Virus record (IMG/VR): IMGVR_UViG_3300025834_000005
Reading direction: 5' to 3' (one strand)
Origin: a virus
Length of the DNA stretch: 64,000 nucleotides
Positions 46,805 to 57,726 of the stretch are shown piece by piece. The notes under the pieces are model-generated. The model was not told the DNA's origin and searched no databases. It saw nothing but the letters and a program-made list of their open reading frames with translations. The position numbers and the translations under genes were made by a program. Position 1 is the stretch's first letter. The number at the start of each line of letters is the position of its first letter.

Positions 46805-46849
46805 AATAACGAATAATTAAACTTTTTTTAAAAAAATTACTATTTATAG

Positions 46850-46879
46850 TTGCAGGTTACAAAATAATGATTACTTTTG
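46850..46879 (+). promoter_or_regulatory. Bacteroidota sigma-A-type promoter of leader unit 1
   Basis: ACTATTTATAgTTGca-N19-TActTTTG. Conserved with units 2 and 3. Confidence 0.65.
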
Positions 46880-46907
46880 TACCGAAATAAAAAAATAATT
46901 AGAAACA

Positions 46908-46979
46908 ATGAGAACAATTTTTAACATAGTACCGCAACATCAACCACAACAATTGAAATCTTTTCAATCGAATGGCTGA
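46908..46979 (+). CDS. leader peptide 1 (MRTIFNIVPQHQPQQLKSFQSNG)
   Basis: Conserved context AGAAAcaATGAGA. The run Pro-Gln-His-Gln-Pro-Gln-Gln matches the downstream tRNA-Pro/His/Gln genes. Confidence 0.6.
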   Translation: MRTIFNIVPQHQPQQLKSFQSNG

Positions 46980-47008
46980 ACTATGTAAAAAATAAGCATA
47001 CATAATGA

Positions 47009-47042
47009 TCCCCTTTAATTGAAAGATTAAAGGGGATTTTTT
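47009..47042 (+). terminator. intrinsic terminator (attenuator 1)
   Basis: 11-bp stem tcccctttaat/attaaagggga plus T6. Lies 30 nt after the leader stop and 3 nt before the first tRNA-like gene. Confidence 0.8.
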
Positions 47043-47044
47043 AT

Positions 47045-47131
47045 ATAGGCGTAGACCTGTAGTTGGTAGCAGTCCTGATTTGGGATCAGGCGTAGTAAAA
47101 TACCTCGTGAGTTCGAGCCTCACCGCTTATA
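47045..47131 (+). tRNA. atypical tRNA-like gene, anticodon UGG (Pro codons), with Leu-like D-arm and 16-nt variable region
   Basis: Acceptor ataggcg/cgcttat. Anticodon arm cctga-tttggga-tcagg. T-arm gtgag-ttcgagc-ctcac. No nucleotide left for position 26. Confidence 0.5.
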
Positions 47132-47142
47132 CAAATTTTTAA

Positions 47143-47667
47143 ATGATTTATATGGAAAAAATTAATAATATTATGATTGTCGCTGTTAATAAAGGATATT
47201 ACGCCAATGAAAATGGTGATATATTCTCAGTGAAGAAAAAGTTAATATTAGGAAAGTCAAAAAATGGTTATCTTCGTTTTTCGATTAGATGCAATGGATA
47301 TAGAGAGGTTGTCTTCGTTCACAAATTTGTAGCATATTTAAAGTATGGCGACAAGATGTTTGAAGATAATATTGAGGTTAGGCATTTTAATGGCGATTCA
47401 TCAGATAATTCATTTGAAAATATATTACTTGGGACACACTCAGATAATATGCAAGATATTTCAAAAATAGTGCGGATAACAAAAGCCTTAATAGCATCAA
47501 AAAAAGTAAGGGCTTTTGATGACGACACTGTTAATGAAATATTAAATGATAGAAAATTTGGAATGACATATAAAGACCTTTGCGCTAAATATGATACGAG
47601 TAAGTCAACGTTGAGTTACTTTTTCAATCATGCATATTATAGTGGTCTCAGAGAATTGAAAGAGTGA
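47143..47667 (+). CDS. HNH homing endonuclease
   Basis: VRHFNGDSSDNSFENILLGTHSDN (HNH_3-type) plus C-terminal helix-turn-helix. Inserted between tRNA genes. Confidence 0.8.
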   Translation: MIYMEKINNIMIVAVNKGYYANENGDIFSVKKKLILGKSKNGYLRFSIRCNGYREVVFVHKFVAYLKYGDKMFEDNIEVRHFNGDSSDNSFENILLGTHSDNMQDISKIVRITKALIASKKVRAFDDDTVNEILNDRKFGMTYKDLCAKYDTSKSTLSYFFNHAYYSGLRELKE

Positions 47668-47673
47668 ATATAC

Positions 47674-47747
47674 AGGGTAGTTATGCAGAGACTATACAAC
47701 GCAAGTTTGGAACTTGCGGTTCGTGGGTTTGAATCCCACCTACCCTA
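47674..47747 (+). tRNA. atypical tRNA-like gene, anticodon UGG, degenerate D-arm (no GG) and T-loop tttgaat (no C56)
   Basis: Acceptor agggtag/ctaccct. Anticodon arm gcaag-tttggaa-cttgc. T-arm gtggg-tttgaat-cccac. Confidence 0.45.
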
Positions 47748-47768
47748 CAAATTATTAGTTTGTAATAT

Positions 47769-47841
47769 AGAGTAGTATATCAATTGGCAGATTACCGCAT
47801 TTGGGATGCGGAGGTTCTGGGTTCGAGTCCCAGTTACTCTA
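47769..47841 (+). tRNA. tRNA-Pro (UGG)
   Basis: Acceptor agagtag/ttactct. Loop tttggga. T-arm ctggg-ttcgagt-cccag. D-loop has GG. Confidence 0.75.
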
Positions 47842-47882
47842 CTGATTATCAATTAGTTGATAGTTATTAAATGGTGTTTGTA

Positions 47883-47957
47883 GCTTAAATGGATAAAGCG
47901 CATGCCTGTGAAGCATGTACATGCGAGATCGTACCTCGTCTAACACCCTAATTTTAA
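47883..47957 (+). tRNA. tRNA-His (GUG) with G-1:C73
   Basis: Extra 5' G pairs with C73. Loop ctgtgaa. T-loop atcgtac (A54/U58 swapped). Confidence 0.75.
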
Positions 47958-47967
47958 ATTAAAGATC

Positions 47968-48732
47968 ATGTATTACGTTGTACAGAAGAATGTTTTTAGA
48001 GAAGAAAATTACGATAATTTGATTATCGCTTTGAATCGGTTAGAGTTGCCTTATGAAATCGTTGATGTGCTACCATTCGTAGACACCTTCGAATTCAAGA
48101 CAACCAGAAAGGATGTATTTCCTTTTGGTGCTGTGAAAATGTCGAGAATTGCCAAAGAATTGGACTGGAATCCAGGCTCTCAATTGTGTGACAATCATGA
48201 TTATAACGTATATAGTAAGTATTATAAGGAGAACTTACTTAATTACGATTCAAAGATCATTAAATTCGGTGATGACTTCTTTCAAACAGAAAGGTTCTTT
48301 GCAAGACCAACATTAGATACGAAAGTGTTTACAGGTAAAGTATTCGACATGGGCGAGTGGATTGAATTCAGAGATAATTCCTTTGCCAATGGACATAGCA
48401 CTTTACTGAACGCCGATACAGAAATTCAGATTTCTTCTGTTAAGAACATTCAGAACGAAATAAGATTCTGGATTGTGAAGGGCGAAATCGCCACAGCAAG
48501 TCAGTATTCTCTGGGTGGAAGATTCTGTGTGAATGCAAACGTTGATCAATCGGCATATGACTTTGTAAACAGAATGATAAAGATATTCGAATTAAACGAC
48601 ACCTTTATCATGGATGCATGCCTTGTTAATGGCGAATACAAAATAGTTGAATGCGGTTGCACTAATAGTGCTGGCTTCTACAGAGCAGACATGCAAAAAC
48701 TGCTTATGAAATTGGAAGACGCTTTCAATTAA
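47968..48732 (+). CDS. ATP-grasp-like protein (tentative)
   Basis: 254 aa. FARPTLDTKVFTGKVF, EIRFWIVKGEI, ECGCTNSAGFY resemble phage R2K-type ATP-grasp proteins. From memory only. Confidence 0.45.
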   Translation: MYYVVQKNVFREENYDNLIIALNRLELPYEIVDVLPFVDTFEFKTTRKDVFPFGAVKMSRIAKELDWNPGSQLCDNHDYNVYSKYYKENLLNYDSKIIKFGDDFFQTERFFARPTLDTKVFTGKVFDMGEWIEFRDNSFANGHSTLLNADTEIQISSVKNIQNEIRFWIVKGEIATASQYSLGGRFCVNANVDQSAYDFVNRMIKIFELNDTFIMDACLVNGEYKIVECGCTNSAGFYRADMQKLLMKLEDAFN

Positions 48733-48739
48733 TATAAAT

Positions 48740-48812
48740 TGTTTCGTGGTGTAATTGGTAACACGTCTGACTCTGAATCAGTTGAGTGCAGGTTCGATCC
48801 CTGCCGAAACAA
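48740..48812 (+). tRNA. tRNA-Gln (CUG)
   Basis: U1-A72 acceptor tgtttcg/cgaaaca. Loop ctctgaa. T-arm gcagg-ttcgatc-cctgc. Confidence 0.75.
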
Positions 48813-48823
48813 CTAAACTATAT

Positions 48824-48895
48824 TGCCCTGTTATGTAATGGTTAGCATACGACACTTTGAATGTCGGAGTCATGGTTCGAGTCCATGCAGGGCAA
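48824..48895 (+). tRNA. tRNA-Gln (UUG)
   Basis: Acceptor tgccctg/cagggca. Loop ctttgaa. T-arm catgg-ttcgagt-ccatg. Confidence 0.8.
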
Positions 48896-48904
48896 CATTT
48901 TCAC

Positions 48905-48935
48905 TTGCATGTTATTTAAAAAATAACTACTTTTG
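48905..48935 (+). promoter_or_regulatory. Bacteroidota sigma-A-type promoter
   Basis: cTTGca-N20-TActTTTG. Confidence 0.6.
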
Positions 48936-48948
48936 CATAAAAAATTTT

Positions 48949-49152
48949 ATGAACTCAGAAAAATTATTGCTACAGATTAAGAAAGATTTAACACCGTTAG
49001 ATATTGGGAAGATAATTGTATTACCATGCAAGGGAGACCCAAGGGTACTACAAAATGAAGTATCGTTTGCAATAATGGGAGAGAATGAAGGCATTATTCA
49101 ATATATTGTAACTGTTGAGAAACTTAATAACAAAACCAATGGGAAACTATAA
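48949..49152 (+). CDS. hypothetical protein
   Basis: The ATG at M43 of track ORF 48823-49152 is chosen because the 5' part overlaps tRNA-Gln. Confidence 0.5.
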   Translation: MNSEKLLLQIKKDLTPLDIGKIIVLPCKGDPRVLQNEVSFAIMGENEGIIQYIVTVEKLNNKTNGKL

Positions 49153-49540
49153 CCTATTCCTTGATGATTTTAGATCGCCAGAGGACGCTTTCTATTACAT
49201 GCGCAATAGCGATTATTTGAAACTTGAATGGGTAATCGTTCGAAGTTATAATGAGTTTGTGAGCTATATCGAGAAGAATGGTATGCCAGCTACGATTAGC
49301 TTCGACCATGATCTTGCCGATATTCATTATGAACAACAAACAAATATCAACTATGATAATGCTGACGATGATGAGAAGACTGGATATCATTGCGCTAAAT
49401 GGCTTATCGATTACACAATGGATAACGATGTTGAATTACCAGCATATATGTTGATACATTCAATGAATACAGTTGGTAGCCGAAACATTAAATCATTGTT
49501 TGAAAACTACAAGCATTTTGTAAAAAAAGGAGCATCATAA
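49139..49540 (+). CDS. receiver-like domain protein (possibly the cyclic-phosphate-processing REC family)
   Basis: NLFLDDFRSP...ISFDHDLA...TGYHCAKWL...HSMNTVGSRNI pattern. Recalled from memory, unverified. Confidence 0.45.
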   Translation: MGNYNLFLDDFRSPEDAFYYMRNSDYLKLEWVIVRSYNEFVSYIEKNGMPATISFDHDLADIHYEQQTNINYDNADDDEKTGYHCAKWLIDYTMDNDVELPAYMLIHSMNTVGSRNIKSLFENYKHFVKKGAS

Positions 49541-49556
49541 TGATACTCCTTTTTTG
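49522..49556 (+). terminator. intrinsic terminator
   Basis: aaggag.atca-taa-tgat.ctcctt hairpin plus T6. Confidence 0.65.
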
Positions 49557-49563
49557 TTTATAT

Positions 49564-49577
49564 TAGTATTTATTATA
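49564..49577 (+). promoter_or_regulatory. phage-specific upstream motif (TAGTATTTATTATA)
   Basis: 12 nt upstream of ATG 49589. Confidence 0.5.
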
Positions 49578-49588
49578 AATTTGATATT

Positions 49589-50587
49589 ATGAGTGATAAG
49601 TATAGCAAAAATAGGCTCTTCGAAATGATGGGCAGGGTGGATAATAATTTCAATGAGGAGTCAACAGCCTCTGATGGTGGCTATCATAGTAAGCATGTAA
49701 ATAATCCACAATCAGCTGGAAAAGAAATACAGAATTGGCTAAATGGCATAGGTCAGGAAAAAACAACGCAAATATATTATAGAATGGCTGACGAATTTAG
49801 AGACATAGTAATTGATGACTCTGATCTATCATATATGCGTTCAGAATCGCCTGATGATTTGGATTATGGCTTTGTTGAAGCATTGGCATGTTATAAGCAT
49901 GACTATAATGAGGATAGTCCTTATATGTACTTCGTTAATTTCTTACTAAGCACTAAATATAGATTCAATCCAAAAACCACATTTAGTTATCGTGCAGAAG
50001 ACTTGGATGAGAAAGGTAAAGCTATTTATAATACTCTTTCAAATGGTGATGACCATTATGGTGAATTGTATGAAGATTTGCTTTATGATCAGGCTGAACA
50101 AGATGATAACAATAATGACCGCAACGGTTATGATGAAAGCGTTAAAAAAAGACTCTCAACTATTTTTGAAATTAAAAACATCGAAGCTCAGAGAAATGGT
50201 AAGAAGAAAGTTTTAAACGAAACTAAGCTTTTTGGCATGATTAATAAACTTGAAAGTAAACGCAAGCTCAATGAATGGGGTGATGAAAATGACTCTGATT
50301 ACGAGAATGATTCAAGTAATTATAGTGAACAAGGTGATTATGATGATCACGAGGGCAGTAGCAGCAATTATGGCGCAAATGACCGTGAAGCCGACAATAC
50401 AGATCATATGGATGAGGAATTATCAACAGAAGACCCTCATTTTCAAATAGGGTCTTTGAGACAGAAACTTAACTCTCATTTAGATCAGGTTCAAAGACTG
50501 TTCACTTATCTGGATGAAAAACCTTCAATAGAAGCTGTTAAGGGGTTTGTAGGAAGCGTTCTAAATGGTTGGGAAAAAGAAAAATAA
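49589..50587 (+). CDS. RLFE-leader family protein B (very acidic)
   Basis: N-terminus MSDKYSKNRLFEMMGRVDNNF. 332 aa, D/E/N-rich. Confidence 0.65.
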   Translation: MSDKYSKNRLFEMMGRVDNNFNEESTASDGGYHSKHVNNPQSAGKEIQNWLNGIGQEKTTQIYYRMADEFRDIVIDDSDLSYMRSESPDDLDYGFVEALACYKHDYNEDSPYMYFVNFLLSTKYRFNPKTTFSYRAEDLDEKGKAIYNTLSNGDDHYGELYEDLLYDQAEQDDNNNDRNGYDESVKKRLSTIFEIKNIEAQRNGKKKVLNETKLFGMINKLESKRKLNEWGDENDSDYENDSSNYSEQGDYDDHEGSSSNYGANDREADNTDHMDEELSTEDPHFQIGSLRQKLNSHLDQVQRLFTYLDEKPSIEAVKGFVGSVLNGWEKEK

Positions 50588-50626
50588 AAATATTTTAAAC
50601 TTTTTTGAATTATTTACTATTTATAT

Positions 50627-50656
50627 TTGCAGGTAATAAAAAAAGCATTACCTTTG
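50627..50656 (+). promoter_or_regulatory. Bacteroidota sigma-A-type promoter of leader unit 2
   Basis: ACTATTTATAtTTGca-N19-TAccTTTG. Confidence 0.65.
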
Positions 50657-50709
50657 TACCGAAATTAATATTTACTTCCTTTAGGGAATCAAAAAAAAGA
50701 ATAGAAACG

Positions 50710-50844
50710 ATGAGAAATTTACTTAACATGGCACATTACATAGTCAATTCTAATGGGAATCAAAAGAACATGGAATTATTGGCAGTGGAACAGGTCAACC
50801 TCCTATTATGGGCGGATGAGGATACATTGTGCAATGCTGGTTAA
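50710..50844 (+). CDS. leader peptide 2 (MRNLLNMAHYIVNSNGNQKNMELLAVEQVNLLLWADEDTLCNAG)
   Basis: Conserved AGAAAcgATGAGA context. 21 of 44 codons are Leu/Glu/Ala/Val/Trp/Asp, the identities of the downstream tRNA array. Confidence 0.6.
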   Translation: MRNLLNMAHYIVNSNGNQKNMELLAVEQVNLLLWADEDTLCNAG

Positions 50845-50869
50845 GTAGAGTTTAATAATAATATTAAAT

Positions 50870-50902
50870 AAAACCTCCAGCATACGTGTTGGAGGTTTTT
50901 TG
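50870..50902 (+). terminator. intrinsic terminator (attenuator 2)
   Basis: aacctcca/tggaggtt stem plus T7. 44 nt before tRNA-Asp. Confidence 0.8.
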
Positions 50903-50945
50903 TTTATATGCGTTTTTTGACATGTTGGAATTGAAATTAAAAATT

Positions 50946-51017
50946 GGTGCTGTTGTCCAGTGGTAGGATGACTCGTTGTCTGCGAGAGGGTCGTGGGTTC
51001 GAATCCCATCAGCACCG
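50946..51017 (+). tRNA. tRNA-Asp (GUC), unusual U37
   Basis: Acceptor ggtgctg/cagcacc, G73. Loop ttgtctg. T-arm gtggg-ttcgaat-cccat. Confidence 0.65.
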
Positions 51018-51081
51018 CAAAACGTTTATCGGAAGGTAAACGCAGCAGAGTTTAATAGTAACGTTTTAAAATAACTCTGAT

Positions 51082-51153
51082 AGTTCCGTAGTTTATATTG
51101 GTGTGAATCCACGCAGGGTCGTGGGGTTGCTGGTTCAAATCCAGTCGGGACTG
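51082..51153 (+). tRNA. tRNA-like gene of undetermined identity (6-nt anticodon loop as folded)
   Basis: Acceptor agttccg/cgggact. D-loop has TTGGT. T-arm gctgg-ttcaaat-ccagt. The central arm ccacg-cagggt-cgtgg does not give a canonical loop. Confidence 0.35.
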
Positions 51154-51211
51154 CTTTAGCATTATGAGAGTACTTACCCTTAAGGTATGCCAACCTAAAT
51201 TGCTTTTTTAT

Positions 51212-51286
51212 ACTATCATAGGGGAGTTGGTCGTCCCTGCAAGCCTGTCACGCTTGAGATCACGGGTTCGAATCCCGTTGGTAGTG
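51212..51286 (+). tRNA. tRNA-Asp (GUC)
   Basis: Acceptor actatca/tggtagt, G73. Loop ctgtcac. T-arm acggg-ttcgaat-cccgt. Confidence 0.7.
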
Positions 51287-51318
51287 CGAGTTTCATAAAC
51301 GATATGAAACATTTAGAT

Positions 51319-51393
51319 GCCGCTGTTGACAAATTGGAATAAGTCACCACCCTTTCAAGGTGGATATTGCGAGTTCGAACCTCGTCGGCGGTA
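51319..51393 (+). tRNA. tRNA-Glu (UUC)
   Basis: Acceptor gccgctg/cggcggt. Loop ctttcaa. T-arm gcgag-ttcgaac-ctcgt. Confidence 0.7.
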
Positions 51394-51402
51394 CAAATTT
51401 AT

Positions 51403-51483
51403 GGCTTAGTGGTGGAACGGTATACACAGTAGTTTCAAAAGCTACCGCCACACGGCATGAGAGTTCAAATCTCTCCTGAGTCA
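51403..51483 (+). tRNA. tRNA-Leu (CAA), long variable arm
   Basis: Loop ttcaaaa. Variable arm gcc-acac-ggc. T-arm gagag-ttcaaat-ctctc. Confidence 0.75.
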
Positions 51484-51488
51484 CATAT

Positions 51489-51564
51489 GCTTCTTTCGCT
51501 TAGTTGGTTTTAAAGCGTCTGTTTTACACACAGAAGACCGATGGTTCGAATCCATCAAGAAGTA
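51489..51564 (+). tRNA. tRNA-Val (UAC)
   Basis: Acceptor gcttctt/aagaagt. Loop tttacac. T-arm gatgg-ttcgaat-ccatc. Confidence 0.75.
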
Positions 51565-51573
51565 CAATTACAA

Positions 51574-51660
51574 GGCCTCGTGATGAAATTGGCAGTACAT
51601 AGCAGACTTAAAATCTGCTGCTCTGAGAAGGGCGTGTGGGTTCGAAGCCCATCGAGGTCA
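51574..51660 (+). tRNA. tRNA-Leu (UAA), long variable arm
   Basis: Loop cttaaaa. 17-nt variable region. T-arm gtggg-ttcgaag-cccat. Confidence 0.75.
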
Positions 51661-51670
51661 CAAATTATAT

Positions 51671-51743
51671 GGATCGGTAGACCAACGGTAGAGTCAGTAG
51701 CCTTAGAAACTATTCAGTGAGGGTTCGAATCCCTCTCGATCTA
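51671..51743 (+). tRNA. tRNA with anticodon UAG (Leu codons), Leu-like D-arm but only a 5-nt variable loop
   Basis: D-arm gac-caacggtaga-gtc. Loop cttagaa with a C-A mismatch at the closing pair. T-arm gaggg-ttcgaat-ccctc. Confidence 0.55.
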
Positions 51744-51754
51744 CAATATTTAAT

Positions 51755-51843
51755 GGGGAATTGGTGGAATTTGGTAGACACGCTTGTCTAAGAAGCAAGT
51801 GCGAAATAATAGTAGCGTGTGAGTTCGAGTCTCACATTCCTCA
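51755..51843 (+). tRNA. tRNA-Leu (AAG, A34), long variable arm
   Basis: Loop ctaagaa. 19-nt variable region. T-arm gtgag-ttcgagt-ctcac. Confidence 0.65.
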
Positions 51844-51931
51844 CGCAATCAATGGGAACGCATGTGCTAAGCAGATGGGAATCAGACAGGGAGCATGCCA
51901 AGAATCTTGTACAGGGTTGGAGATTCATTTA
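51844..51931 (+). ncRNA. unassigned structured spacer inside the tRNA array (two hairpins)
   Basis: gcatg(t)..catgc stem (51860-51898) and gaatct-N13-agattc stem (51902-51926). No cloverleaf could be folded. Confidence 0.3.
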
Positions 51932-51932
51932 T

Positions 51933-52006
51933 GGGGTCGTAGCTTAATTGGCTAAAGCACTTGATTTGCACTCAAGAGAGTGAGGGTTCGATGCCCTTCG
52001 ACTCCA
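51933..52006 (+). tRNA. tRNA-Ala (UGC) with G3:U70
   Basis: Acceptor ggggtcg/cgactcc gives G3-U70. Loop tttgcac. T-arm gaggg-ttcgatg-ccctt. Confidence 0.8.
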
Positions 52007-52034
52007 CTGATAATCAGGAGATTATCTATTTCAC

Positions 52035-52107
52035 ACGCATGTACCAGAGCGGCTAATGGCACAGCTTCCAACCCTGATGTTCGTGGGTTCGAGTCCTACC
52101 ATGCGTG
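52035..52107 (+). tRNA. tRNA-Trp (CCA), weak anticodon stem
   Basis: A1-U72 and G73, as in bacterial tRNA-Trp. Loop ttccaac. T-arm gtggg-ttcgagt-cctac. Only 3 Watson-Crick pairs in the anticodon stem. Confidence 0.55.
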
Positions 52108-52111
52108 CCTT

Positions 52112-52156
52112 AAGAATAAATGTTGCAAATTTTTGTAACATTTATTCTTTTTTTTC
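52112..52156 (+). terminator. strong intrinsic terminator ending the tRNA array
   Basis: 13-bp stem aagaataaatgtt/aacatttattctt plus T8. Confidence 0.85.
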
Positions 52157-52176
52157 GTATAATTAAGAAAAACAAT

Positions 52177-52422
52177 ATGCGTGATCATAGGGAAATAATA
52201 AATGAATGCTGTGCTGATGTTAATTGCGAAGGTATAATTGAGATCGCTGAATCAGCAATAGGAAAAGCATTAAAAGAATATAATGATGAAATTGTTGAAA
52301 CGCTTCAGAATGCCTCAAATCTTTACACTGTTATTGACGGCAATTACGTTATCCAGAAAATGGATTTAGATCACATAATTGCAGACTTGGAATACAATAC
52401 TAAATTTAAATTATATGAATGA
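52177..52422 (+). CDS. hypothetical protein
   Basis: ATG (M20 of the track ORF) chosen because the 5' part lies inside the terminator. Confidence 0.5.
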   Translation: MRDHREIINECCADVNCEGIIEIAESAIGKALKEYNDEIVETLQNASNLYTVIDGNYVIQKMDLDHIIADLEYNTKFKLYE

Positions 52423-52588
52423 ACTTTTTAGTTTCCTAAACCAACAAAATGTCGATAGATTGATCGGCTATAGTTTTGTTTTCTTGGTGTCATTATATCT
52501 TATCACTGAATGTGTATCGGTTATTTTCAGATCAGCGTTTGCCGCTATTAGGCGTTCAAGAGTGGAAAAACCAAAAACAGAAAAATAA
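52415..52588 (+). CDS. small membrane protein
   Basis: ATGAATGA overlap with the upstream stop. Hydrophobic helix LIGYSFVFLVSLYLI. Confidence 0.5.
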   Translation: MNELFSFLNQQNVDRLIGYSFVFLVSLYLITECVSVIFRSAFAAIRRSRVEKPKTEK

Positions 52589-52591
52589 TAT

Positions 52592-53527
52592 TTATAAAGA
52601 AAATCCTTTTGATGATGACTTAGTGCCATTTAATACATGATAAATCGATGTTTCGTCTAATTTATGATCTTTACAAAATAGTTTTACACTGGCAAAAGTA
52701 TATTGTAAGTTATCACGATAAAGTATATATTCTTTTCCATGATCTATTTCTATGCGATTTCTCAACTCTGATAGTGAAAAATTTTGTTTATTGAAAGCAG
52801 TCCAACCATTAAGAAACGTCATTTTTAATGTTCTTAAATATAGAGGCATCATCATTTTAGCGTTTAATTTATGTGATTTACAAAATTCAGTGAAATTAAT
52901 TACCCTGTGAAATTTATTATCAGTTAAATTGTAAAAAATATAATTATACCATTTTTTACATAAAGAATATTTTATCTTAACATCTGCATAGTATTTGTCA
53001 TTATTTATAATCGTACTAATTGTTGGCGAGGACAGATTATAATATTTAGAAATTTCACGATAATTTAATCCGTTGTTATATTTATCAAAAATACTAATTA
53101 TATTTAAATCGGTTAAATTTTGCTTGGAATCTGATATTGCTTTTTTATGGCTATCCCTCATTTTTCCTGAATTAACAATACCTGCTAATGGCGTCGAGTT
53201 ATATCCGTTGTTATATGATTCATATTTATCTATATAATATTGTTCCCTAATCTGCGAATTATTTTTTGTTATTTCTTCAAATAGTATGAATTCCCATTTA
53301 CTAAAATCGCATTCGTATTTATTAAATGAGCGTTGTAATTTTTCGGAATGGTGCGAATTAGTCCTTAAATTGTAAATATGTCTCGCAATTCTTATATACA
53401 CGCCAAGTTTATTTATTGTCGATCCTATGTAATATTTGTTAGTAATCATATTTCTAATTCCATAAACATATGGCTTATTTTTATTATCAGCAGTAATACA
53501 TTCAATATTTATATTTCGTATGTTCAT
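52592..53527 (-). CDS. GIY-YIG homing endonuclease
   Basis: VYGIRNMITNKYYIGST (GIY-x10-YIG), R..H, REQYYIDKY, NGYN. C-terminal helix-turn-helix YREISKYYNLSSPTIS. Confidence 0.8.
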   Translation of the reverse strand: MNIRNINIECITADNKNKPYVYGIRNMITNKYYIGSTINKLGVYIRIARHIYNLRTNSHHSEKLQRSFNKYECDFSKWEFILFEEITKNNSQIREQYYIDKYESYNNGYNSTPLAGIVNSGKMRDSHKKAISDSKQNLTDLNIISIFDKYNNGLNYREISKYYNLSSPTISTIINNDKYYADVKIKYSLCKKWYNYIFYNLTDNKFHRVINFTEFCKSHKLNAKMMMPLYLRTLKMTFLNGWTAFNKQNFSLSELRNRIEIDHGKEYILYRDNLQYTFASVKLFCKDHKLDETSIYHVLNGTKSSSKGFSL

Positions 53528-53538
53528 AATTAATCTTT

Positions 53539-53550
53539 AATATAAATACG
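53539..53550 (-). promoter_or_regulatory. phage-specific upstream motif (sense CGTATTTATATT)
   Basis: 12 nt upstream of ATG 53527. Confidence 0.5.
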
Positions 53551-53590
53551 TATAAAATTTCTAAAAATAAAGACTATTGAAAAATAATGT

Positions 53591-53621
53591 TTGTAAATGC
53601 AAAAAAAAATACATATCTTTG
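53591..53621 (+). promoter_or_regulatory. Bacteroidota sigma-A-type promoter
   Basis: gTTGta-N20-TAtcTTTG. Confidence 0.55.
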
Positions 53622-53646
53622 CATTCAAATAAAAAAAATATGACTT

Positions 53647-54333
53647 ATGCTTATATTGAGTAACGGCAAGAAAGATTATTATGATGGTGTTGTTCAAACG
53701 ACAGGTATTGATAAAACAATCGTTTATAACAGGCATCAAAATGATATCGAAAACTCGTTTAAGGATTACAAAAACCTACCAAAGGATTTGATTAAACTTG
53801 TTGAAGGTATCACAGCTTTCAATATCGATCTTAAGAAAACCACAATCGAATTTCAGGGGATATATGTGATTGCTTTTTGTGGCAAAATGCATGTATTATG
53901 GCATCTATTAAATAAAACATCATTCAACGATGTTAATCCTGAATCAATCTTCACATATAATTTAAATGATGTGAAGGGTATTGTTAAAACCATTGCATGG
54001 CATCAACAGGGAGACGTTACAGAGGCTTATAAAGCCATTACTAATTACGACCCTATGAGTCTTCATCGTTTACATAATACGCCTGTATTCGCCATTAATA
54101 CGTCATTCGGAAGATATGGCGGACGTGACTCAAACTTTATTATAAATCCTATATTGAAACCCTACAGATTTTATAAGGTTTTCAATTCCTTCGCAGCTTT
54201 ACAGGAAATTCAGATGTTTATCTCTGGTGTATTAGGCACAAATGAAAATAGTATCATTGAATTAAGTGATCAATCAAAAATAGCAAAACATGGATTCGAC
54301 AAAAACTCCTTTAGAAAAGAAAAAAGAACCTGA
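53647..54333 (+). CDS. hypothetical protein
   Basis: 228-aa ORF downstream of a host-type promoter. Confidence 0.6.
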   Translation: MLILSNGKKDYYDGVVQTTGIDKTIVYNRHQNDIENSFKDYKNLPKDLIKLVEGITAFNIDLKKTTIEFQGIYVIAFCGKMHVLWHLLNKTSFNDVNPESIFTYNLNDVKGIVKTIAWHQQGDVTEAYKAITNYDPMSLHRLHNTPVFAINTSFGRYGGRDSNFIINPILKPYRFYKVFNSFAALQEIQMFISGVLGTNENSIIELSDQSKIAKHGFDKNSFRKEKRT

Positions 54334-54390
54334 TAATTGCTGCGGTAAGACCGCTAATGCGATTGAACAGAGAAAGAATAATAAAGCAAT

Positions 54391-54421
54391 AAAAAAGGGA
54401 AGCTAAGTGCCTCCCTTTTTT
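54391..54421. terminator. bidirectional intrinsic terminator
   Basis: A6-gggaag-ctaagtg-cctccc-T5 between convergent genes. Confidence 0.6.
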
Positions 54422-55355
54422 AGTATTTTGCGAACATTTTAAAATCGTTCTTGGTTAACGCTGAATCCACAGTGTCAACATTACCTCTTATTTTCTCGTA
54501 AAGTTTCTTAGCTAATTTAGCATTATAAATTAAAAGATTCACCATTTGAGGATTAAACTCATATTTTTCGATATTTTTCAAATATTCATCGTCATTGGGA
54601 CTGTACATGAATGTTAAAGCTAAATTTCTATCTTGTGAAAAGAATGAAAAAGCGAAAATATCACCATTGCCAACACCTCTCATTTCAACCTTAACGAATT
54701 TGAATTTGGTTGGTTGACTTTCGCCATTCGATCTATCAACAACCAACAAGGGTAATTCAGGTTTATTCATGAATTTACCAAACATATTATCGAGAACATC
54801 TTGTCTTATTTTTCTTGTTCTTGAATCAGGTCTATCGGTTTTAAATGCTTTTGAACCCATTTCAGCACCGATCTCATTAATCTTAGCACTATCGACAGCA
54901 TTGATGCCATCGTGTGAGCTATTACCAATAGTATCGTCCTCTGTACCATCGCTGAGGTTAGCTTCATCCATTTCTGAATCAGTGTTAAAGAAATTTTCTC
55001 TCTTATCTACGAAATCGCCCCATGAGGTTACTAAAAATTGTCTCTCCTTTGTATCGTAAACAATTGTTTTCTCATATGTATCGCCCATATTTATATACAA
55101 GCCGATAGCGTCTCTCCAATAATTATCAACAGATTCGTTTTCATCAGTTATTGTTTCAACGCCATAACCCTCTAAATACTTGTTAGCATTGTCCATAGCA
55201 TCTTCAACAGAATTTTGTGATAGATGTTCTCCGTTAAGTTTCTCAGCATATCTCTCAATAACATTGCTTTCGTCATCGATTTCATTCACGCTTCCGAAAT
55301 GTTGATCAATTCTTCCCATTACCTCAAATAACCTTTGTTTACTATTTTTTTTCAT
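54420..55355 (-). CDS. RLFE-leader family protein C (acidic)
   Basis: N-terminus MKKNSKQRLFEVMGRIDQHF. Confidence 0.65.
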   Translation of the reverse strand: MKKNSKQRLFEVMGRIDQHFGSVNEIDDESNVIERYAEKLNGEHLSQNSVEDAMDNANKYLEGYGVETITDENESVDNYWRDAIGLYINMGDTYEKTIVYDTKERQFLVTSWGDFVDKRENFFNTDSEMDEANLSDGTEDDTIGNSSHDGINAVDSAKINEIGAEMGSKAFKTDRPDSRTRKIRQDVLDNMFGKFMNKPELPLLVVDRSNGESQPTKFKFVKVEMRGVGNGDIFAFSFFSQDRNLALTFMYSPNDDEYLKNIEKYEFNPQMVNLLIYNAKLAKKLYEKIRGNVDTVDSALTKNDFKMFAKY

Positions 55356-55365
55356 GTTGATATTT

Positions 55366-55797
55366 TTAATTAAAACTTACTGTGCATGTATTATTTTTAA
55401 AATCGAATTGAAGATCAGTAGCGTATAAAGTACCACCGTTTGTTAGATTGGCTTCACCAATTATGAATCTCCATTTATATTCGTCTATGTTCTTTTCGGT
55501 ATTCGATATTAATTCATCTGTGTTCTTGTCTCTGAGTTCAAGACTAAATGTTCCTTCCAATCCTATGATAACTATTTTCATATACCCGATACCTTGTTCA
55601 TCAGGATTAAACCCAATACCCCAATTAATAACGATATTGCTGTCATTAATGTCTGATTCATATTCAGATGATATGTTGTCATAGTTGAAAAAATGAGATT
55701 GCTCAATAACGGATTTGAATGTGAACTGACCATTAGCGTATACGTAATTTTCGCTTATTAGCCTGATTTCATCGTTGATAATCTTATTAATATTCAT
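55366..55797 (-). CDS. hypothetical protein
   Basis: Start moved to M14 (MNINK...) because the phage motif lies inside the first 13 track codons. Confidence 0.5.
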   Translation of the reverse strand: MNINKIINDEIRLISENYVYANGQFTFKSVIEQSHFFNYDNISSEYESDINDSNIVINWGIGFNPDEQGIGYMKIVIIGLEGTFSLELRDKNTDELISNTEKNIDEYKWRFIIGEANLTNGGTLYATDLQFDFKNNTCTVSFN

Positions 55798-55811
55798 ATT
55801 GTCAATATTTT

Positions 55812-55824
55812 TATAATAAATACT
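55812..55824 (-). promoter_or_regulatory. phage-specific upstream motif (sense AGTATTTATTATA)
   Basis: 15 nt upstream of ATG 55797. Confidence 0.5.
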
Positions 55825-55854
55825 TATTTTTTTCAAATTATTTACTATTTATAC

Positions 55855-55885
55855 TTGCACATGTGATTTATTTGAATTACTTTTG
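55855..55885 (+). promoter_or_regulatory. Bacteroidota sigma-A-type promoter of leader unit 3
   Basis: ACTATTTATAcTTGca-N20-TActTTTG. Confidence 0.65.
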
Positions 55886-55913
55886 TGCCAGTTAAAATAA
55901 TTAAAAAATAGAA

Positions 55914-55991
55914 ATGATGAATGCAACACTTAAATACGGAAAGACTACTAAATCTTATAAAAAATATAAGATGAAGAAGGACTGTGTGTAA
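55914..55991 (+). CDS. leader peptide 3 (MMNATLKYGKTTKSYKKYKMKKDCV)
   Basis: Conserved AGAAAtgATGA context. 8 Lys (AAA and AAG) and 3 Tyr (TAC and TAT) codons precede the Lys/Tyr tRNA array. Confidence 0.6.
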   Translation: MMNATLKYGKTTKSYKKYKMKKDCV

Positions 55992-56013
55992 GTGAACTAT
56001 ATATAATATATTC

Positions 56014-56048
56014 AAAAACCCAGTCTTAATTTAAGTCTGGGTTTTTTT
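56014..56048 (+). terminator. intrinsic terminator (attenuator 3)
   Basis: cccagtctt-aattt-aagtctggg plus T7. 15 nt before the first tRNA. Confidence 0.8.
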
Positions 56049-56062
56049 ATGTTAAAAAATTC

Positions 56063-56134
56063 GCTCCTATAGCTTAATGGTAAAGCCTTCGACCTTTAAT
56101 CGAATGACCCCTGAATCAGTATCAGGTGGGAGCA
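56063..56134 (+). tRNA. tRNA-Lys (UUU)-like variant with C33 and a non-canonical T-loop
   Basis: Acceptor gctccta/tgggagc. Loop cctttaa. T-arm cctga-atcagta-tcagg. Confidence 0.55.
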
Positions 56135-56150
56135 CAGAGTATAATAAGTC

Positions 56151-56221
56151 GCTTCTATAGCTCAATGGTAGAGCTTGTAACTTTTAATTATAAGACCTCG
56201 GTTCGATTCCGAGTAGGAGCA
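56151..56221 (+). tRNA. tRNA-Lys (UUU)
   Basis: Acceptor gcttcta/taggagc. Loop cttttaa. T-arm ctcgg-ttcgatt-ccgag. Confidence 0.8.
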
Positions 56222-56230
56222 CAAAATATT

Positions 56231-56304
56231 GCCTTCGTAGCTTAAATGGATAAAGCTACGCCCTCTTAAGGCGAGGACTGTGGGATCGTACCCCACCGAG
56301 GGCA
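56231..56304 (+). tRNA. tRNA-Lys (CUU)
   Basis: Acceptor gccttcg/cgagggc. Loop ctcttaa. T-arm gtggg-atcgtac-cccac. Confidence 0.75.
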
Positions 56305-56379
56305 CTAACTGAAACACGAATCCAAGTTTCTGTCAACTCATTCGCTTAGAGTGAGAAGAGTTTAGAGGATTCATATATT

Positions 56380-56473
56380 GGGAGTCTAACGGCAGCAGAC
56401 TGTAAATCTGCCCTGCTTTAAAAAATTGTCGTACTGGAATAGCAGTAGAAAGGTTCGAATCCTTTGGCTCTCA
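56380..56473 (+). tRNA. aberrant tRNA-Tyr (GUA)-like gene: no room for a normal D-arm and a 37-nt variable region
   Basis: Acceptor gggagtc/ggctctc. Anticodon arm gcaga-ctgtaaa-tctgc. T-arm aaagg-ttcgaat-ccttt. Only 8 nt between acceptor and anticodon stem. Confidence 0.4.
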
Positions 56474-56484
56474 CAAATAAATAA

Positions 56485-56566
56485 GGGTAAGATGGTAAAT
56501 TGATTAAATCAGAGGCTTGTAACACCTTCGTCATCGACTATGTAGGTTTGATTCCTACCTTACCCA
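56485..56566 (+). tRNA. tRNA-Tyr (GUA), long variable arm
   Basis: Perfect acceptor gggtaag/cttaccc. Loop ttgtaac. Variable cgtcatcgactat. T-arm gtagg-tttgatt-cctac. Confidence 0.7.
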
Positions 56567-57221
56567 CAATGATCGCAGTAATTATATTTAAGAATTTCTG
56601 CGATGTCTGTTCTTTGAAATATTTTTGGGTTGATGTATCGATGATACAAAATTCGATTCCATGTTCAATACATGCTTGAAATTTACGATCATCGTTATTT
56701 TGAATTTTAACCAGTTTATCTTGACCGTAGATTGGCTCGTAATGAAATATTCCATTTAGCTCGAAAGCAAGTTTTAATGACGGAATATAAATATCAAGTT
56801 CTGAATTAATAGCTTCTTTACGATTGAAATGAATTTCAAGACAAGGATAAAGCTTTGTAAGTTCTATTTCAAGATATACTTCAAGTTTTGATCGTCTATT
56901 GCCAGTCGTCTTATGTTTATTATTATAAGTGGCTGCACATGACTTACAACAGAAGTTATTAACATTATCTTTCACTGATGAAAATTTCTTTAAAAAGGAT
57001 ATTCCACAATTATTGCATTTTACGTTTATCTTTGTAATCTGTGATAGTGCCATGCATTTTCTTGAGCAAAAATCAATACTGTTAGTCGTGTTACCTTTCA
57101 AATAGTACTTAATTAGTTTCTTTTCAACAAAAAAGGTATTTTCACATGTTAAGCATTTGCATGGCAATTTGTCAGTGCCCTTAGCTTGGTCGTATTCAAT
57201 ATCAATGTATAATGGATTCAT
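56538..57221 (-). CDS. zinc-finger + PD-(D/E)xK (Vsr/DUF559-like) homing endonuclease
   Basis: Two CxxC...FCSxxC modules, then ELDIYIPSLKLAFELNGIFHY, paralogous to LDFKHKNKIIEYNGNYWH in the terL intein. The TAG stop and last 29 nt are antisense to tRNA-Tyr. Confidence 0.7.
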   Translation of the reverse strand: MNPLYIDIEYDQAKGTDKLPCKCLTCENTFFVEKKLIKYYLKGNTTNSIDFCSRKCMALSQITKINVKCNNCGISFLKKFSSVKDNVNNFCCKSCAATYNNKHKTTGNRRSKLEVYLEIELTKLYPCLEIHFNRKEAINSELDIYIPSLKLAFELNGIFHYEPIYGQDKLVKIQNNDDRKFQACIEHGIEFCIIDTSTQKYFKEQTSQKFLNIITAIIVGKVGIKPT

Positions 57222-57582: not shown

Positions 57583-57612
57583 GCGATTGAAGAAATTTAA
57601 TCGCCATTTTTT
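57583..57612 (+). terminator. intrinsic terminator
   Basis: gcgatt-N10-aatcgc hairpin, then caT6. Confidence 0.55.
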
Positions 57613-57651: not shown

Positions 57652-57726
57652 GGCTCATTATATTAGCGGTCAGATGGCGGAATTCTAAACTCCGAGACGT
57701 GGGTTCGAGTCCCACACGAGCCACCA
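57652..57726 (+). tRNA. suppressor-type tRNA, anticodon CUA (reads UAG), with genomically encoded CCA
   Basis: Acceptor ggctcat/acgagcc (one A-C mismatch), A73, then cca. D-loop agcggtca. Anticodon arm cggaa-ttctaaa-ctccg. T-arm gtggg-ttcgagt-cccac. Confidence 0.6.

Follow-up and report, generated by a model that had tools for sequence, protein, structure and literature searches.

Is the transcription of the transfer RNA (tRNA) genes of a phage adjusted to the supply of the very tRNAs that they encode? The question is raised by a locus in the IMG/VR virus record IMGVR_UViG_3300025834_000005, of which a stretch of 64,000 nucleotides (nt), here called the window, was analyzed. Phage tRNAs have been discussed as a compensation for codon usage and as a countermeasure to host tRNA degradation and anticodon nucleases; to our knowledge, next to nothing has been learned about the regulation of tRNA genes by the phages that carry them. 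Three tRNA arrays are located on the + strand between 46.8 and 56.6 kb of the window (ARAGORN, Rfam), and each is directly preceded by a unit made up of a promoter, a small open reading frame (ORF) and a strong intrinsic terminator. An initial annotation had proposed that the ORFs encode leader peptides whose codons mirror the downstream tRNA genes. The core of that idea is strongly supported by the comparative evidence presented here, and we consider it about 75% probable that each unit would function as a ribosome-mediated (leader-peptide) transcription attenuator gating a phage tRNA operon. The correspondence between leader and tRNAs, as judged from the compared sequences, is strongly supported: it recurs in many independent leader classes and tracks the changes in array content.

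Layout of the leader units

The presence of three paralogous units with the same layout was confirmed, coordinates included, and so were their conserved promoter and start context. The exact 16-mer ACTATTTATAnTTGCA occurs in the window only at 46839, 50616 and 55844 (when up to two mismatches are allowed there are 6 matches versus 0.7 expected), a -7 box TAnnTTTG is found 17-18 nt 3' of the TTGCA in all three units (46872, 50649 and 55878), and the start context TAGAAAnnATGA is common to all of them (alignment A1). The elements match the pattern of Bacteroidota sigma-A promoters, in which a -33 TTTG/TTG stands about 19 nt before the -7 TAnnTTTG (46850, 50627 and 55855); the same pattern is present at six further gene starts between 44 and 60 kb, and all Bacteroidota promoter calls given here are calls of this pattern. 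On the + strand of the region, TTG-N-TAnnTTTG sites are found only before protein genes and before the three leaders. No TAnnTTTG promoter is present in the window between a terminator and its tRNAs (gaps of 12-46 nt) or within an array, and the three unit promoters are the only recognisable Bacteroidota-type promoters 5' of the arrays of the window. The relatives described below show a similar arrangement, with a -7 box 27-60 nt 5' of the leader ATG in 36/42 family units.

The ORFs have the 23, 44 and 25 codons initially assigned to them. Leader stop codons lie 19-46 nt upstream of the terminator hairpins. In the window the hairpins have folding energies of -15 to -18 kcal/mol and each is followed by a T-run. 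Strong terminators thus do precede the arrays; hairpin and first tRNA are separated by 12, 46 and 16 nt in units 1, 2 and 3. The list of tRNA identities was essentially correct, with the caveats that the gene listed as Trp is called Gly(UCC) by ARAGORN and is a Trp homologue, and that the gene at 51082-51154 is aberrant. The features of the three units are as follows.

Unit 1 and the Pro/His/Gln array
46839-46879, + strand: promoter of unit 1, Bacteroidota sigma-A-type layout; -33 motif ACTATTTATAGTTGCA at 46839-46854, -7 box TACTTTTG at 46872-46879
46908-46979, + strand: leader ORF 1, 23 amino acids, MRTIFNIVPQHQPQQLKSFQSNG and stop; putative sensor run P-Q-H-Q-P-Q-Q, codons 9-15 (46932-46952)
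46957-46976, + strand: candidate antiterminator 1, AATCTTTTCAATCGAATGGC; can pair, with one bulge, with the apex of the terminator and its upper 5' arm (CCCCTTTAATTGAAAGAT)
47007-47044, + strand: intrinsic terminator 1 (putative attenuator); hairpin 47007-47038, -18.0 kcal/mol, and T-tract; identical in relative L497
47051-48896, + strand: tRNA array 1 (ARAGORN, Rfam)
47051-47132, + strand: tRNA-Pro(UGG), weak, 25 bits
47143-47667, + strand: HNH ORF within array 1
47674-47748, + strand: tRNA-Pro(UGG)
47769-47842, + strand: tRNA-Pro(UGG)
47874-47948, + strand: tRNA-His(GUG)
47968-48732, + strand: R2K ATP-grasp ORF within array 1
48740-48813, + strand: tRNA-Gln(CUG)
48824-48896, + strand: tRNA-Gln(UUG)

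Unit 2 and the Asp/Glu/Leu/Val/Ala array
50616-50656, + strand: promoter of unit 2; 16-mer at 50616-50631, -7 box TACCTTTG at 50649-50656
50710-50844, + strand: leader ORF 2, 44 amino acids, MRNLLNMAHYIVNSNGNQKNMELLAVEQVNLLLWADEDTLCNAG and stop; putative sensor part, codons 22-38 (50773-50823)
50833-50841, + strand: candidate antiterminator 2, ATGCTGG, within the final codons ahead of the stop; complements CCAGCAT of the terminator 5' arm and loop
50870-50905, + strand: intrinsic terminator 2 (putative attenuator); hairpin 50870-50899, -16.4 kcal/mol, and T-run
50912-50923, + strand: boxA-like motif GTTTTTTGACAT, by resemblance, between terminator 2 and the first tRNA
50946-52155, + strand: tRNA array 2; Asp, aberrant gene, Asp, Glu, Leu(CAA), Val, Leu(UAA), Leu(UAG), Leu(AAG), Ala, Trp-homologous gene
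51082-51154, + strand: aberrant tRNA-like gene of array 2 with a 6-nt anticodon loop
52035-52109, + strand: Trp-homologous gene of array 2; Gly(UCC) in ARAGORN, clear homology to the tRNA-Trp(CCA) of relatives
52112-52149, + strand: operon-end terminator of array 2

Unit 3 and the Lys/Tyr array
55844-55885, + strand: promoter of unit 3; 16-mer at 55844-55859, -7 box TACTTTTG at 55878-55885
55914-55991, + strand: leader ORF 3, 25 amino acids, MMNATLKYGKTTKSYKKYKMKKDCV and stop; putative Lys/Tyr sensor codons 7-22 (55932-55979)
55977-55988, + strand: candidate antiterminator 3, AAGGACTGTGTG; complements AACCCAGTCTTA of the terminator 5' arm
56014-56052, + strand: intrinsic terminator 3 (putative attenuator); hairpin 56014-56046, about -15 kcal/mol, and T-tract
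56063-56567, + strand: tRNA array 3
56063-56134, + strand: tRNA-Lys(UUU); Rfam 53.5 bits, missed by ARAGORN; C33 and a non-canonical T-loop
56151-56222, + strand: tRNA-Lys(UUU)
56231-56305, + strand: tRNA-Lys(CUU)
56381-56473, + strand: tRNA-Tyr(GUA)-like gene, from manual inspection and folding only
56486-56567, + strand: tRNA-Tyr(GUA), weak

Leader composition and tRNA identities

As a background for the composition of the leaders, the amino-acid frequencies in 20 long ORFs from the window were used. Pro, His and Gln make up 8/22 residues of leader 1 (1.6 expected, p=8e-5) and Lys and Tyr 11/24 residues of leader 3 (2.6 expected, p=2e-5), so for these two units the proposed mirroring of the array by its leader stood. 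In leader 2 the C-terminal 24 residues are enriched as well (17/24, p=1e-4, for a split that was made post hoc). When leaders are assigned to arrays, the cognate assignment yields 41 matches and the five other permutations yield 5-23. Taken from the window alone, the match between leaders and tRNAs is suggestive, not conclusive.

A closer relative, represented by the ~225-kb contigs L497 and L498, has all three units in the same order, and a comparison of the window with L497 showed the units to be far more conserved than their flanks. The ~225-kb relatives include JGI 3300029989 Ga0311365_10000023. Indeed, from the ATG to the first tRNA unit 3 is 100% identical, whereas the adjacent protein is only 76% identical. 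The L497 counterpart of leader 1 reads MRTIFNIVPQHQPQPLKYLQSNG; apart from a hairpin change described below, the substitutions in unit 1 comprise a synonymous CAA>CAG and a Q>P that stays inside the sensed set. Leader 2 of the window has an extra 39 nt in frame (13 codons, for AHYIVNSNGNQKN) with AACATGG/AACATAG repeats at the flanks, and its 5' untranslated region has a 23-nt insertion (50657-50772 in the window compared with ~6190-6262 on the reverse strand of L497). The extra codons do not fit the tRNAs of the array; the L497 leader without them is MRNLLNIELLAVDQVNLLLWADEDRLCHAG, of which 19/29 residues fit the array (p=3e-4).

Further relatives were retrieved with the ATP-grasp ORF of array 1, a DNA pattern of the leader start, a leader-independent boxA-like motif and GenBank huge-phage records, as well as with the promoter pattern in metagenomes and with the neighbours of unit 3. 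The leaders found in this way, on viral and metagenome contigs as well as in the published genomes of two huge phages, fall into at least 15 classes that differ in sequence. The class to which leader ORF 1 is homologous (PQH class; 18 distinct sequences in alignment A2) comprises about 35 loci with MKNLVNI(V/Q)PQPQQHPQ..EWGNYA ahead of Pro, His and Gln tRNAs. The leader MKKLLDILVAVLMVDVLLWAAEEDDLCEVG and its variants precede Asp, Glu, Val, Leu, Ala and Trp tRNAs (the DELVAW leaders), and MKNSVNILLQQLQLLQLRSCGRFCIM, with the run LLQQLQLLQL, stands ahead of an array of three Gln and four Leu tRNAs. Gln, Phe and Arg tRNAs are preceded by MKNLINITCQSRFQVVFFVQQVQK..., and 14 tRNA identities by MKTFGKHMINFKQSQIVISCNRNWYPSMSYGSPKCFIS, in which 34/37 residues match. 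The most extensive case is MKNTLKHMVNCLPSNQWSFSYITRNQSRVFSLMS, ahead of 15 tRNA identities: 32/33 of its residues match and D, E, A and G are lacking. The next leader in the same phage, MKNLHILLIGGDLAEATFKRRV, precedes Leu, Phe, Met, Ile, Gly, Ala, Asp and Glu tRNAs; L366a and L366b are two complementary leaders in one phage. In the published 735-kb phage LR756501.1 a leader with ...TPAPAVAFRRGTGTGTGTCVPAGCG... (TPAPAVAFRRGTGTGTGT...) precedes Arg, Pro, Ala, Thr, Val and Gly tRNAs, and in the published huge phage LR756500.1 MKAISVHIIHIWEHLLEEVNINIM precedes His, Glu, Val, Trp and Leu tRNAs. Moreover, at a site syntenic with unit 3, the distant relative L499 has a different leader, MTTVMTYKQYYYKKLSYEAGYCMSTKY, which is again rich in Lys and Tyr and again stands ahead of Lys and Tyr tRNAs.

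For 11 independent leader classes the cognate assignment gives 158 matches versus 94±12 after permutation (maximum 149 in 100,000 permutations, p<=1e-5). Every tRNA amino-acid type of the own array is present in 13/17 leaders, where the chance of such coverage is 0.0003 for L366a and 0.0014 for L202a, and 0.0003-0.05 across the larger sets. The residues without a match are concentrated in the conserved N-terminus and the C-terminal tail of the leaders. Thus the scan of related phages bore out the expectation that leader composition would follow the downstream tRNAs.

Units of this kind are missing from some phages that do have tRNA arrays. The PQH leader was not detectable in GenBank phages (blastn and tblastn), among which only unannotated huge-phage metagenome-assembled genomes (MAGs) have units, with other leader sequences. 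A leader unit was found neither in Flavobacterium phage immuto, a cultured relative with respect to the T4-like capsid that has 4 tRNAs only, nor in a crAss-like Bacteroides phage with 23 tRNAs. A scan of genome contigs with the leader-start pattern returned one true match, L485, and no host homologue of the leader. Host peptides of the form 'MKNxVNIL...' were rejected as an off-frame artefact within a conserved host protein-coding gene, presumably recF.

Candidate antiterminators, folding and signs of translation

Most classes of relatives contain, in the 3' part of the ORF (mostly within the last ~10 codons), an exact 7-10 nt complement of the 5' arm of their own terminator. The pairs of antiterminator and arm differ between classes, with at least 7 different sequence solutions: GAATGGGG/CCCCATTC, AGTCGGGT/ACCCGACT, CAAGAGGC/GCCTCTTG, TTGGGACT/AGTCCCAA, CCTTGGG/CCCAAGG, GGAGGGG/CCCCTCT and GGCCGATTCT; class L202a is not above chance. 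The cognate duplexes of the relatives have energies of -13 to -16 kcal/mol versus a mean of about -6 for non-cognate combinations, with shuffle p mostly <=0.01. Since most of these segments lie 8-21 nt before the stop or span it, a terminating ribosome would cover them.

The conservation of the leaders is of a coding type, which indirectly points to their translation. Among 12 distinct 24-codon PQH leaders, the putative sensor codons 9, 11, 12 and 13 vary synonymously only (CCN, CAR), while the antiterminator codons GAA TGG GGA show no nucleotide change, not even in third positions, and the adjacent spacer codons are freely variable. In addition, all differences in leader length are in frame.

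In naked PQH and DELVAW leaders the antiterminator is paired with the region of the sensor codons, a situation also known from the trp leader. In unit 1 of the window the antiterminator segment also forms a local hairpin, TTGAAA/TTTCAA, analogous to the region 1:2 pairing; L497 has a compensatory change to TTGAAG/CTTCAA and retains the complementarity to the terminator apex. A compensatory T>C/A>G pair is likewise present in the stem of terminator 2 of L497, and RNAalifold predicted a small hairpin from the region of the stop codon with compensatory changes. The ATGCTGG of unit 2 is kept in L497; with respect to the stop, it is placed where most of the related, shorter leaders of its class have the strong antiterminator AGTCGGGT/ACCCGACT.

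The truncated transcript, as it exists before the 3' arm of the terminator is made, was folded with a ribosome footprint placed on it. Across the family the 5' arm was mostly paired upstream when the footprint was on the sensor codons and freed when it was on the last codons or the stop. For the window, the pairing of the 5' arm decreased from sensor to ORF end from 0.57 to 0.29 in unit 1, from 0.45 to 0.27 in unit 2 and from 0.66 to 0.31 in unit 3, a modest switch whose differences were reached by 2.5%, 5% and 0% of the shuffles, respectively (40 trials).

A further pairing was observed in the PQH units (e.g. L121 8895-8990; columns 63-75 and 142-153 of alignment A2). The region of the start codon (ATGAAAAATTTAG, a strand that was part of the search pattern) complements the sequence at and after the stop (CTTAAATTTTTC), and the NIV codons (AACATAGTT) complement the NYA codons (AACTATGCT). 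The full naked leader can thus fold back upon itself and bury the start codon, which would possibly limit translation to the first co-transcriptional ribosome.

A model for the control of phage tRNA operons and its alternatives

Leader translation, ribosome stalling, a kinetic competition between hairpins and its polarity are the steps that we infer for the working of these units. Transcription would start at the host-type Bacteroidota -33/-7 promoter and the A-rich 5' end would be translated at once. After a short N-terminal ramp, the ribosome would decode the sensor codons and so sample almost every amino-acid identity of the downstream tRNAs at least once. If the sampled aminoacyl-tRNAs are plentiful, the ribosome would reach the last codons or the stop and cover the complement of the 5' arm, the terminator would form and the polymerase would halt before the tRNAs. 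If any sampled tRNA is scarce, the ribosome would stall upstream, the complement would stay naked and pair with the emerging 5' arm, and, as no terminator forms, the polymerase would enter the array, in some units past a boxA-like element. Scarcity could be caused by a high demand of the phage, by a mismatch with the host pool or by cleavage by host nucleases. The outcome would be a negative feedback in which the supply of each tRNA group is driven by demand. For Bacteroidota jumbo and T4-like phages in general, it is fairly likely that such translation-coupled sensors provide a group-wise autoregulated tRNA homeostasis as well as an alarm against tRNA depletion or anticodon nucleases, answered with replacement tRNAs.

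Several observations weigh against this attenuation model. In the first place, extra tRNA would not relieve a stalling that results from amino-acid starvation. The enrichment of leader 2 as a whole is marginal (21-22/43 residues in the set, p=0.02-0.06), so that its claimed mirroring of the array stood in part only; the enrichment is diluted because of the 39-nt in-frame insertion that the relative lacks. Off-frame short ORFs of the window may also be rich in Pro, His and Gln (4/338 at a similar p), and some leaders of the family were picked among nested or alternative ORFs by the likeness of their MKN... start, which brings a mild researcher freedom into the statistics. Several tRNA calls in the window are weak or aberrant. 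The 7-nt complements near the stop codons, reported initially for each unit, do exist, but in the window they are weak: the pairing is marginal in units 1 and 3 and not above chance in unit 2. In unit 1 there is no complementarity to the 5' arm alone (-2.3 kcal/mol, p=0.8), as the PQH-class alignment shows the ancestral antiterminator GAATGGGG decayed to GAATGGCT and the terminator arm altered; the replacement pairing of the segment AATCTTTTCAAT... with the terminator apex has -8.9 kcal/mol and a shuffle p of ~0.014 (marginal; overall p~0.01-0.05, with the apex included). The duplex of unit 3 has -10.1 kcal/mol (shuffle p 0.02-0.04, marginal), and that of unit 2 -9.4 to -11.2 kcal/mol (p 0.2-0.3, not above shuffles). 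Moreover, masked folding of the leaders, from which the initial annotation had expected a switch, showed none at equilibrium: the terminator has a probability of at least 0.9 at almost every ribosome position. As equilibrium folding always favours the terminator, the switch must be kinetic. Finally, although the window has no TAnnTTTG box between its terminators and the tRNAs, in 5/42 family units (L125, L202b, L288, L364 and L366b) a promoter-like TAnnTTTG box stands after the terminator, ahead of a boxA-like motif, and none before the leader, so that read-through cannot be the sole input there. The leaders of these five units appear to lie at the end of the preceding array and their composition still fits the downstream array (e.g. 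L366b); read-through would in these cases supplement an own promoter. On balance, the fit to the model is moderate for units 1 and 3 and weak for unit 2.

Some of these points are also what an alternative would predict in which decoding is indeed sensed, but the output is not a competition between hairpins. The polarity could be opposite, with a stalled ribosome uncoupling from the polymerase so that Rho or the terminator acts, or the output could be RNA stability or processing. The dominance of the terminator at equilibrium and the weak antiterminators of the window would agree with this, and so would the boxA-like elements after many terminators, as boxA elements in known systems counteract or modulate Rho (PMC12360218). 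Nevertheless, we regard the alternative as unlikely, because it does not explain why the 3' ends of the ORFs carry class-specific complements of the 5' arm, whereas the classical polarity predicts them. The distance between stops and hairpins argues against it as well, since at 19-46 nt a terminating ribosome cannot directly block the terminator, and the opposite polarity would amount to a positive feedback, in which scarcity leads to less tRNA, which makes little biological sense.

It is even less probable that ORF and terminator constitute an autonomous small gene, for a micropeptide or a small RNA, while the arrays are transcribed from unrecognised promoters or by leakage and the match with the tRNAs is coincidental or otherwise caused. 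The promoter-like box after the terminator in five family units, the Pro/His/Gln-rich off-frame ORFs and the pattern-only nature of the Bacteroidota promoter prediction could be cited in its favour. However, coincidence accounts poorly for the permutation result across classes and the near-complete coverage of tRNA identities, for sensor codons that vary synonymously only and for leader content that shifts along with array content; the gaps in the window, furthermore, are without a promoter motif. That the leader codons fit the downstream anticodons and that a terminator/antiterminator pair is present would also be expected if the leader RNA bound the tRNAs directly by codon-anticodon pairing, T-box-like, with many specifiers and no translation. 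This is the least probable of the explanations considered: Rfam gave no match to the T-box or any other riboswitch, even at E<=1, the start codon, frame, in-frame indels and distance from stop to antiterminator are conserved and the variation is synonymous, and up to 15 specifiers in 33 codons are implausible for a structured tRNA-binding RNA.

Relation to known systems

Ribosome-mediated attenuation is well known from the leader peptides of the enterobacterial trp, his, leu, thr, ilvGMEDA and pheA operons. The phage units resemble these in that a short leader, translated in the classical systems, has a surplus of regulatory codons and that the regulated genes are preceded by an intrinsic terminator. 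A predicted alternative pairing, clear in the relatives, would likewise tie up the 5' arm of the terminator and is placed so that a terminating ribosome would cover it. The pairing of sensor and antiterminator in the PQH-class relatives is like that of regions 1:2, and multivalent sensing is also found in ilv and thr. They differ in that the targets are tRNA genes instead of biosynthetic enzymes, so that the sensed molecule would be the operon's own product. Moreover, up to 15 identities are represented per leader, mostly by one to a few codons each and without long runs, and the units are phage-encoded, have Bacteroidota-type promoters and lack a Shine-Dalgarno sequence. In line with this, the Rfam families of the Trp, His, Leu and Thr leaders gave no match at E<=1, and the only other match was a chance one to PyrG_leader (31 bits versus a gathering score of 65).

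Another related case is the pheST operon of E. coli with its pheM leader, where a leader-peptide attenuator makes part of the translation machinery respond to how much charged tRNA is available; that element, however, belongs to the host and controls the synthetase for one amino acid, not tRNAs. T-box riboswitches (RF00230) respond to the state of one particular tRNA by forming either a terminator or an antiterminator before translation-related genes. Unlike the present leaders, in which the ORF is conserved as coding sequence, they bind uncharged tRNA directly through a conserved fold and without translation, and their covariance model gave no match at the gathering threshold or at E<=1. The tRNA clusters of T4-like, T5-like and crAss-like phages share the clustered tRNA genes with homing-endonuclease ORFs between them, whereas the crAss-like phage examined and Flavobacterium phage immuto lack a leader/terminator unit. 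We know of no attenuator in the tRNA clusters of T4 or T5. The boxA/NusB-NusE antitermination of untranslated RNA operons of the rrn type (PMC12360218) is brought to mind by the GTTCTTTGACAT-like motif that unit 2, like many related arrays, has directly ahead of the first tRNA; here, though, it is a resemblance in sequence only, and units 1 and 3 of the window do not have it.

The initial annotation knew of no attenuator that samples the codons of its own tRNA genes, and this held in full-text searches of the literature, which found no description of leader peptides or attenuators ahead of phage or bacterial tRNA genes. The paper on the huge phages whose genomes carry units does not mention 'leader' or 'attenuat' (term search). 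As far as sequence can tell, the units would be classical ribosome-mediated attenuators in mechanism, outside the curated leader and T-box families and aimed at tRNA genes, a widespread design that has apparently not been described before.

If the model is correct, it would represent the first case of attenuation that controls tRNA genes and would extend leader-peptide attenuation from the supply of metabolites to the decoding molecules themselves, in an extremely multivalent form with up to 15 species per 33-codon leader. It would also provide a direct feedback mechanism and make the debate on the role of phage tRNAs testable, as the leaders would reveal which tRNA groups the phage 'cares about' and induction is predicted upon depletion of exactly those species. 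Bacteroidota do not rely on initiation led by a Shine-Dalgarno sequence, and the units would be evidence for ribosome-coupled attenuation in this phylum. For synthetic biology, they would offer compact, programmable and codon-specific sensors of tRNA availability. Finally, they would supply an annotation rule for many unannotated short ORFs in huge phages, including those of LR756500.1 and LR756501.1.

Genomic context and additional observations

The window is a portion of a large phage that encodes a T4-like major capsid protein, a portal protein and a ribonucleotide reductase. The nearest cultured relatives of the capsid protein are those of Flavobacterium phage immuto and a Microcystis phage. 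The G+C content of the window is ~33%, and the 328-kb metagenome contig ERZ27245488 k141_1156773 carries an identical region. Megablast and tblastn with the region and a large neighbouring protein revealed no close relative among GenBank phages. Two other searches were unproductive: the protein at 54420-55355 provided no useful synteny, and an exact 30-mer from a window tRNA-Lys had no matches.

An extended -33 region, TATTTATAnTTGCA, is confined to the tRNA-leader promoters of the phage (46839-46854, 50616-50631 and 55844-55859) and is not present at its other TTGCA promoters. It recurs, in the form CGTATTTATACTTGCA, in the distant relative L499, where it stands ahead of the Lys/Tyr leader (reverse strand, ~2885-2900). 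Possibly a dedicated regulator binds there, or the region serves as an UP-like element. When the 16-mer promoter motif was used to scan viral contigs, nothing beyond single chance matches was obtained.

The boxA-like motif (G)GTTCTTTGACAT(A/G)T is located 10-15 nt ahead of the first tRNA in many phage arrays. By its resemblance to the rrn boxA, the site for NusB/NusE, we take GTTCTTTGACAT to be a candidate for such an element. A motif GTT(C/T)TTTGACAT is found in unit 2 of the window (50912-50923) and in many relatives, and is absent from units 1 and 3. In the relatives the motif was observed in L122 (~14706 and ~9040), L202 (10883, 11186 and 11661), L251, L278, L288, L308, L320, L364 and L366, and in some arrays that lack a leader it stands immediately behind a TAnnTTTG promoter. 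The region 11100-11430 of L202 contains, in this order, a promoter-like TAGATTTG, a mini-ORF (MKDGGTGLMM and stop), a G-rich hairpin, the boxA-like motif and a structured-looking non-tRNA RNA of ~230 nt. A sigma-70-type promoter at 50917-50944 was discarded: the consensus match falls inside the boxA-like region, and such matches are at chance level (88 versus 82 expected).

The tRNA region of the window contains genes of the types found in RNA-damage and RNA-repair contexts as well as homing endonucleases (47143-47667, 47968-48732, 49115-49540 and 52592-53527, the last on the - strand). The encoded proteins include a cyclic-phosphate-processing receiver domain (cREC_REC) and HNH and GIY-YIG endonucleases. 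The gene for the R2K-clade ATP-grasp protein inside array 1 keeps its position in relatives and huge phages, and in L499 a T4-type RNA ligase and a DNA ligase adjoin the Lys/Tyr unit. A link of the circuit to anticodon nucleases is speculation, drawn solely from these neighbouring RNA-repair-type genes. Equally speculative is the idea that the altered anticodon loops of the non-canonical tRNA genes at 51082-51154, 52035-52109 and 56063-56134 serve to evade such nucleases; the gene at 52035-52109 has a distorted, mispaired anticodon stem and the loop CUUCCAA.

The ORF at 56538-57221 (- strand) belongs to a family of 4649 homologues (E<=1e-10, ~60% identical) in Bacteroidota MAGs and phages, one of which is labelled a very-short-patch-repair endonuclease in one source; the family is mobile-like and too large to serve for synteny. 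The 3' end of the ORF overlaps the last Tyr tRNA by ~30 nt. At the corresponding site L497 has a different ORF, and its Tyr genes are followed by a tRNA-Ala. These differences suggest that a mobile insertion took place in the window.

In two relatives a transfer-messenger RNA (tmRNA) is encoded beside the tRNA arrays (L122 20044-20394; L123 17518-17873), a further sign that these phages manage the stalling of ribosomes. At 57652-57726 the window encodes a suppressor tRNA with the anticodon CUA (labelled 'Pyl' by ARAGORN); a small ORF and a modest hairpin (57583-57604) stand before it, and a leader unit is lacking. Upstream of the CUA tRNA, neither the window nor L489 showed a leader containing an in-frame TAG. 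The gene is kept in L497, L489 has one too, and its presence hints at reassignment or suppression of TAG in some phage genes.

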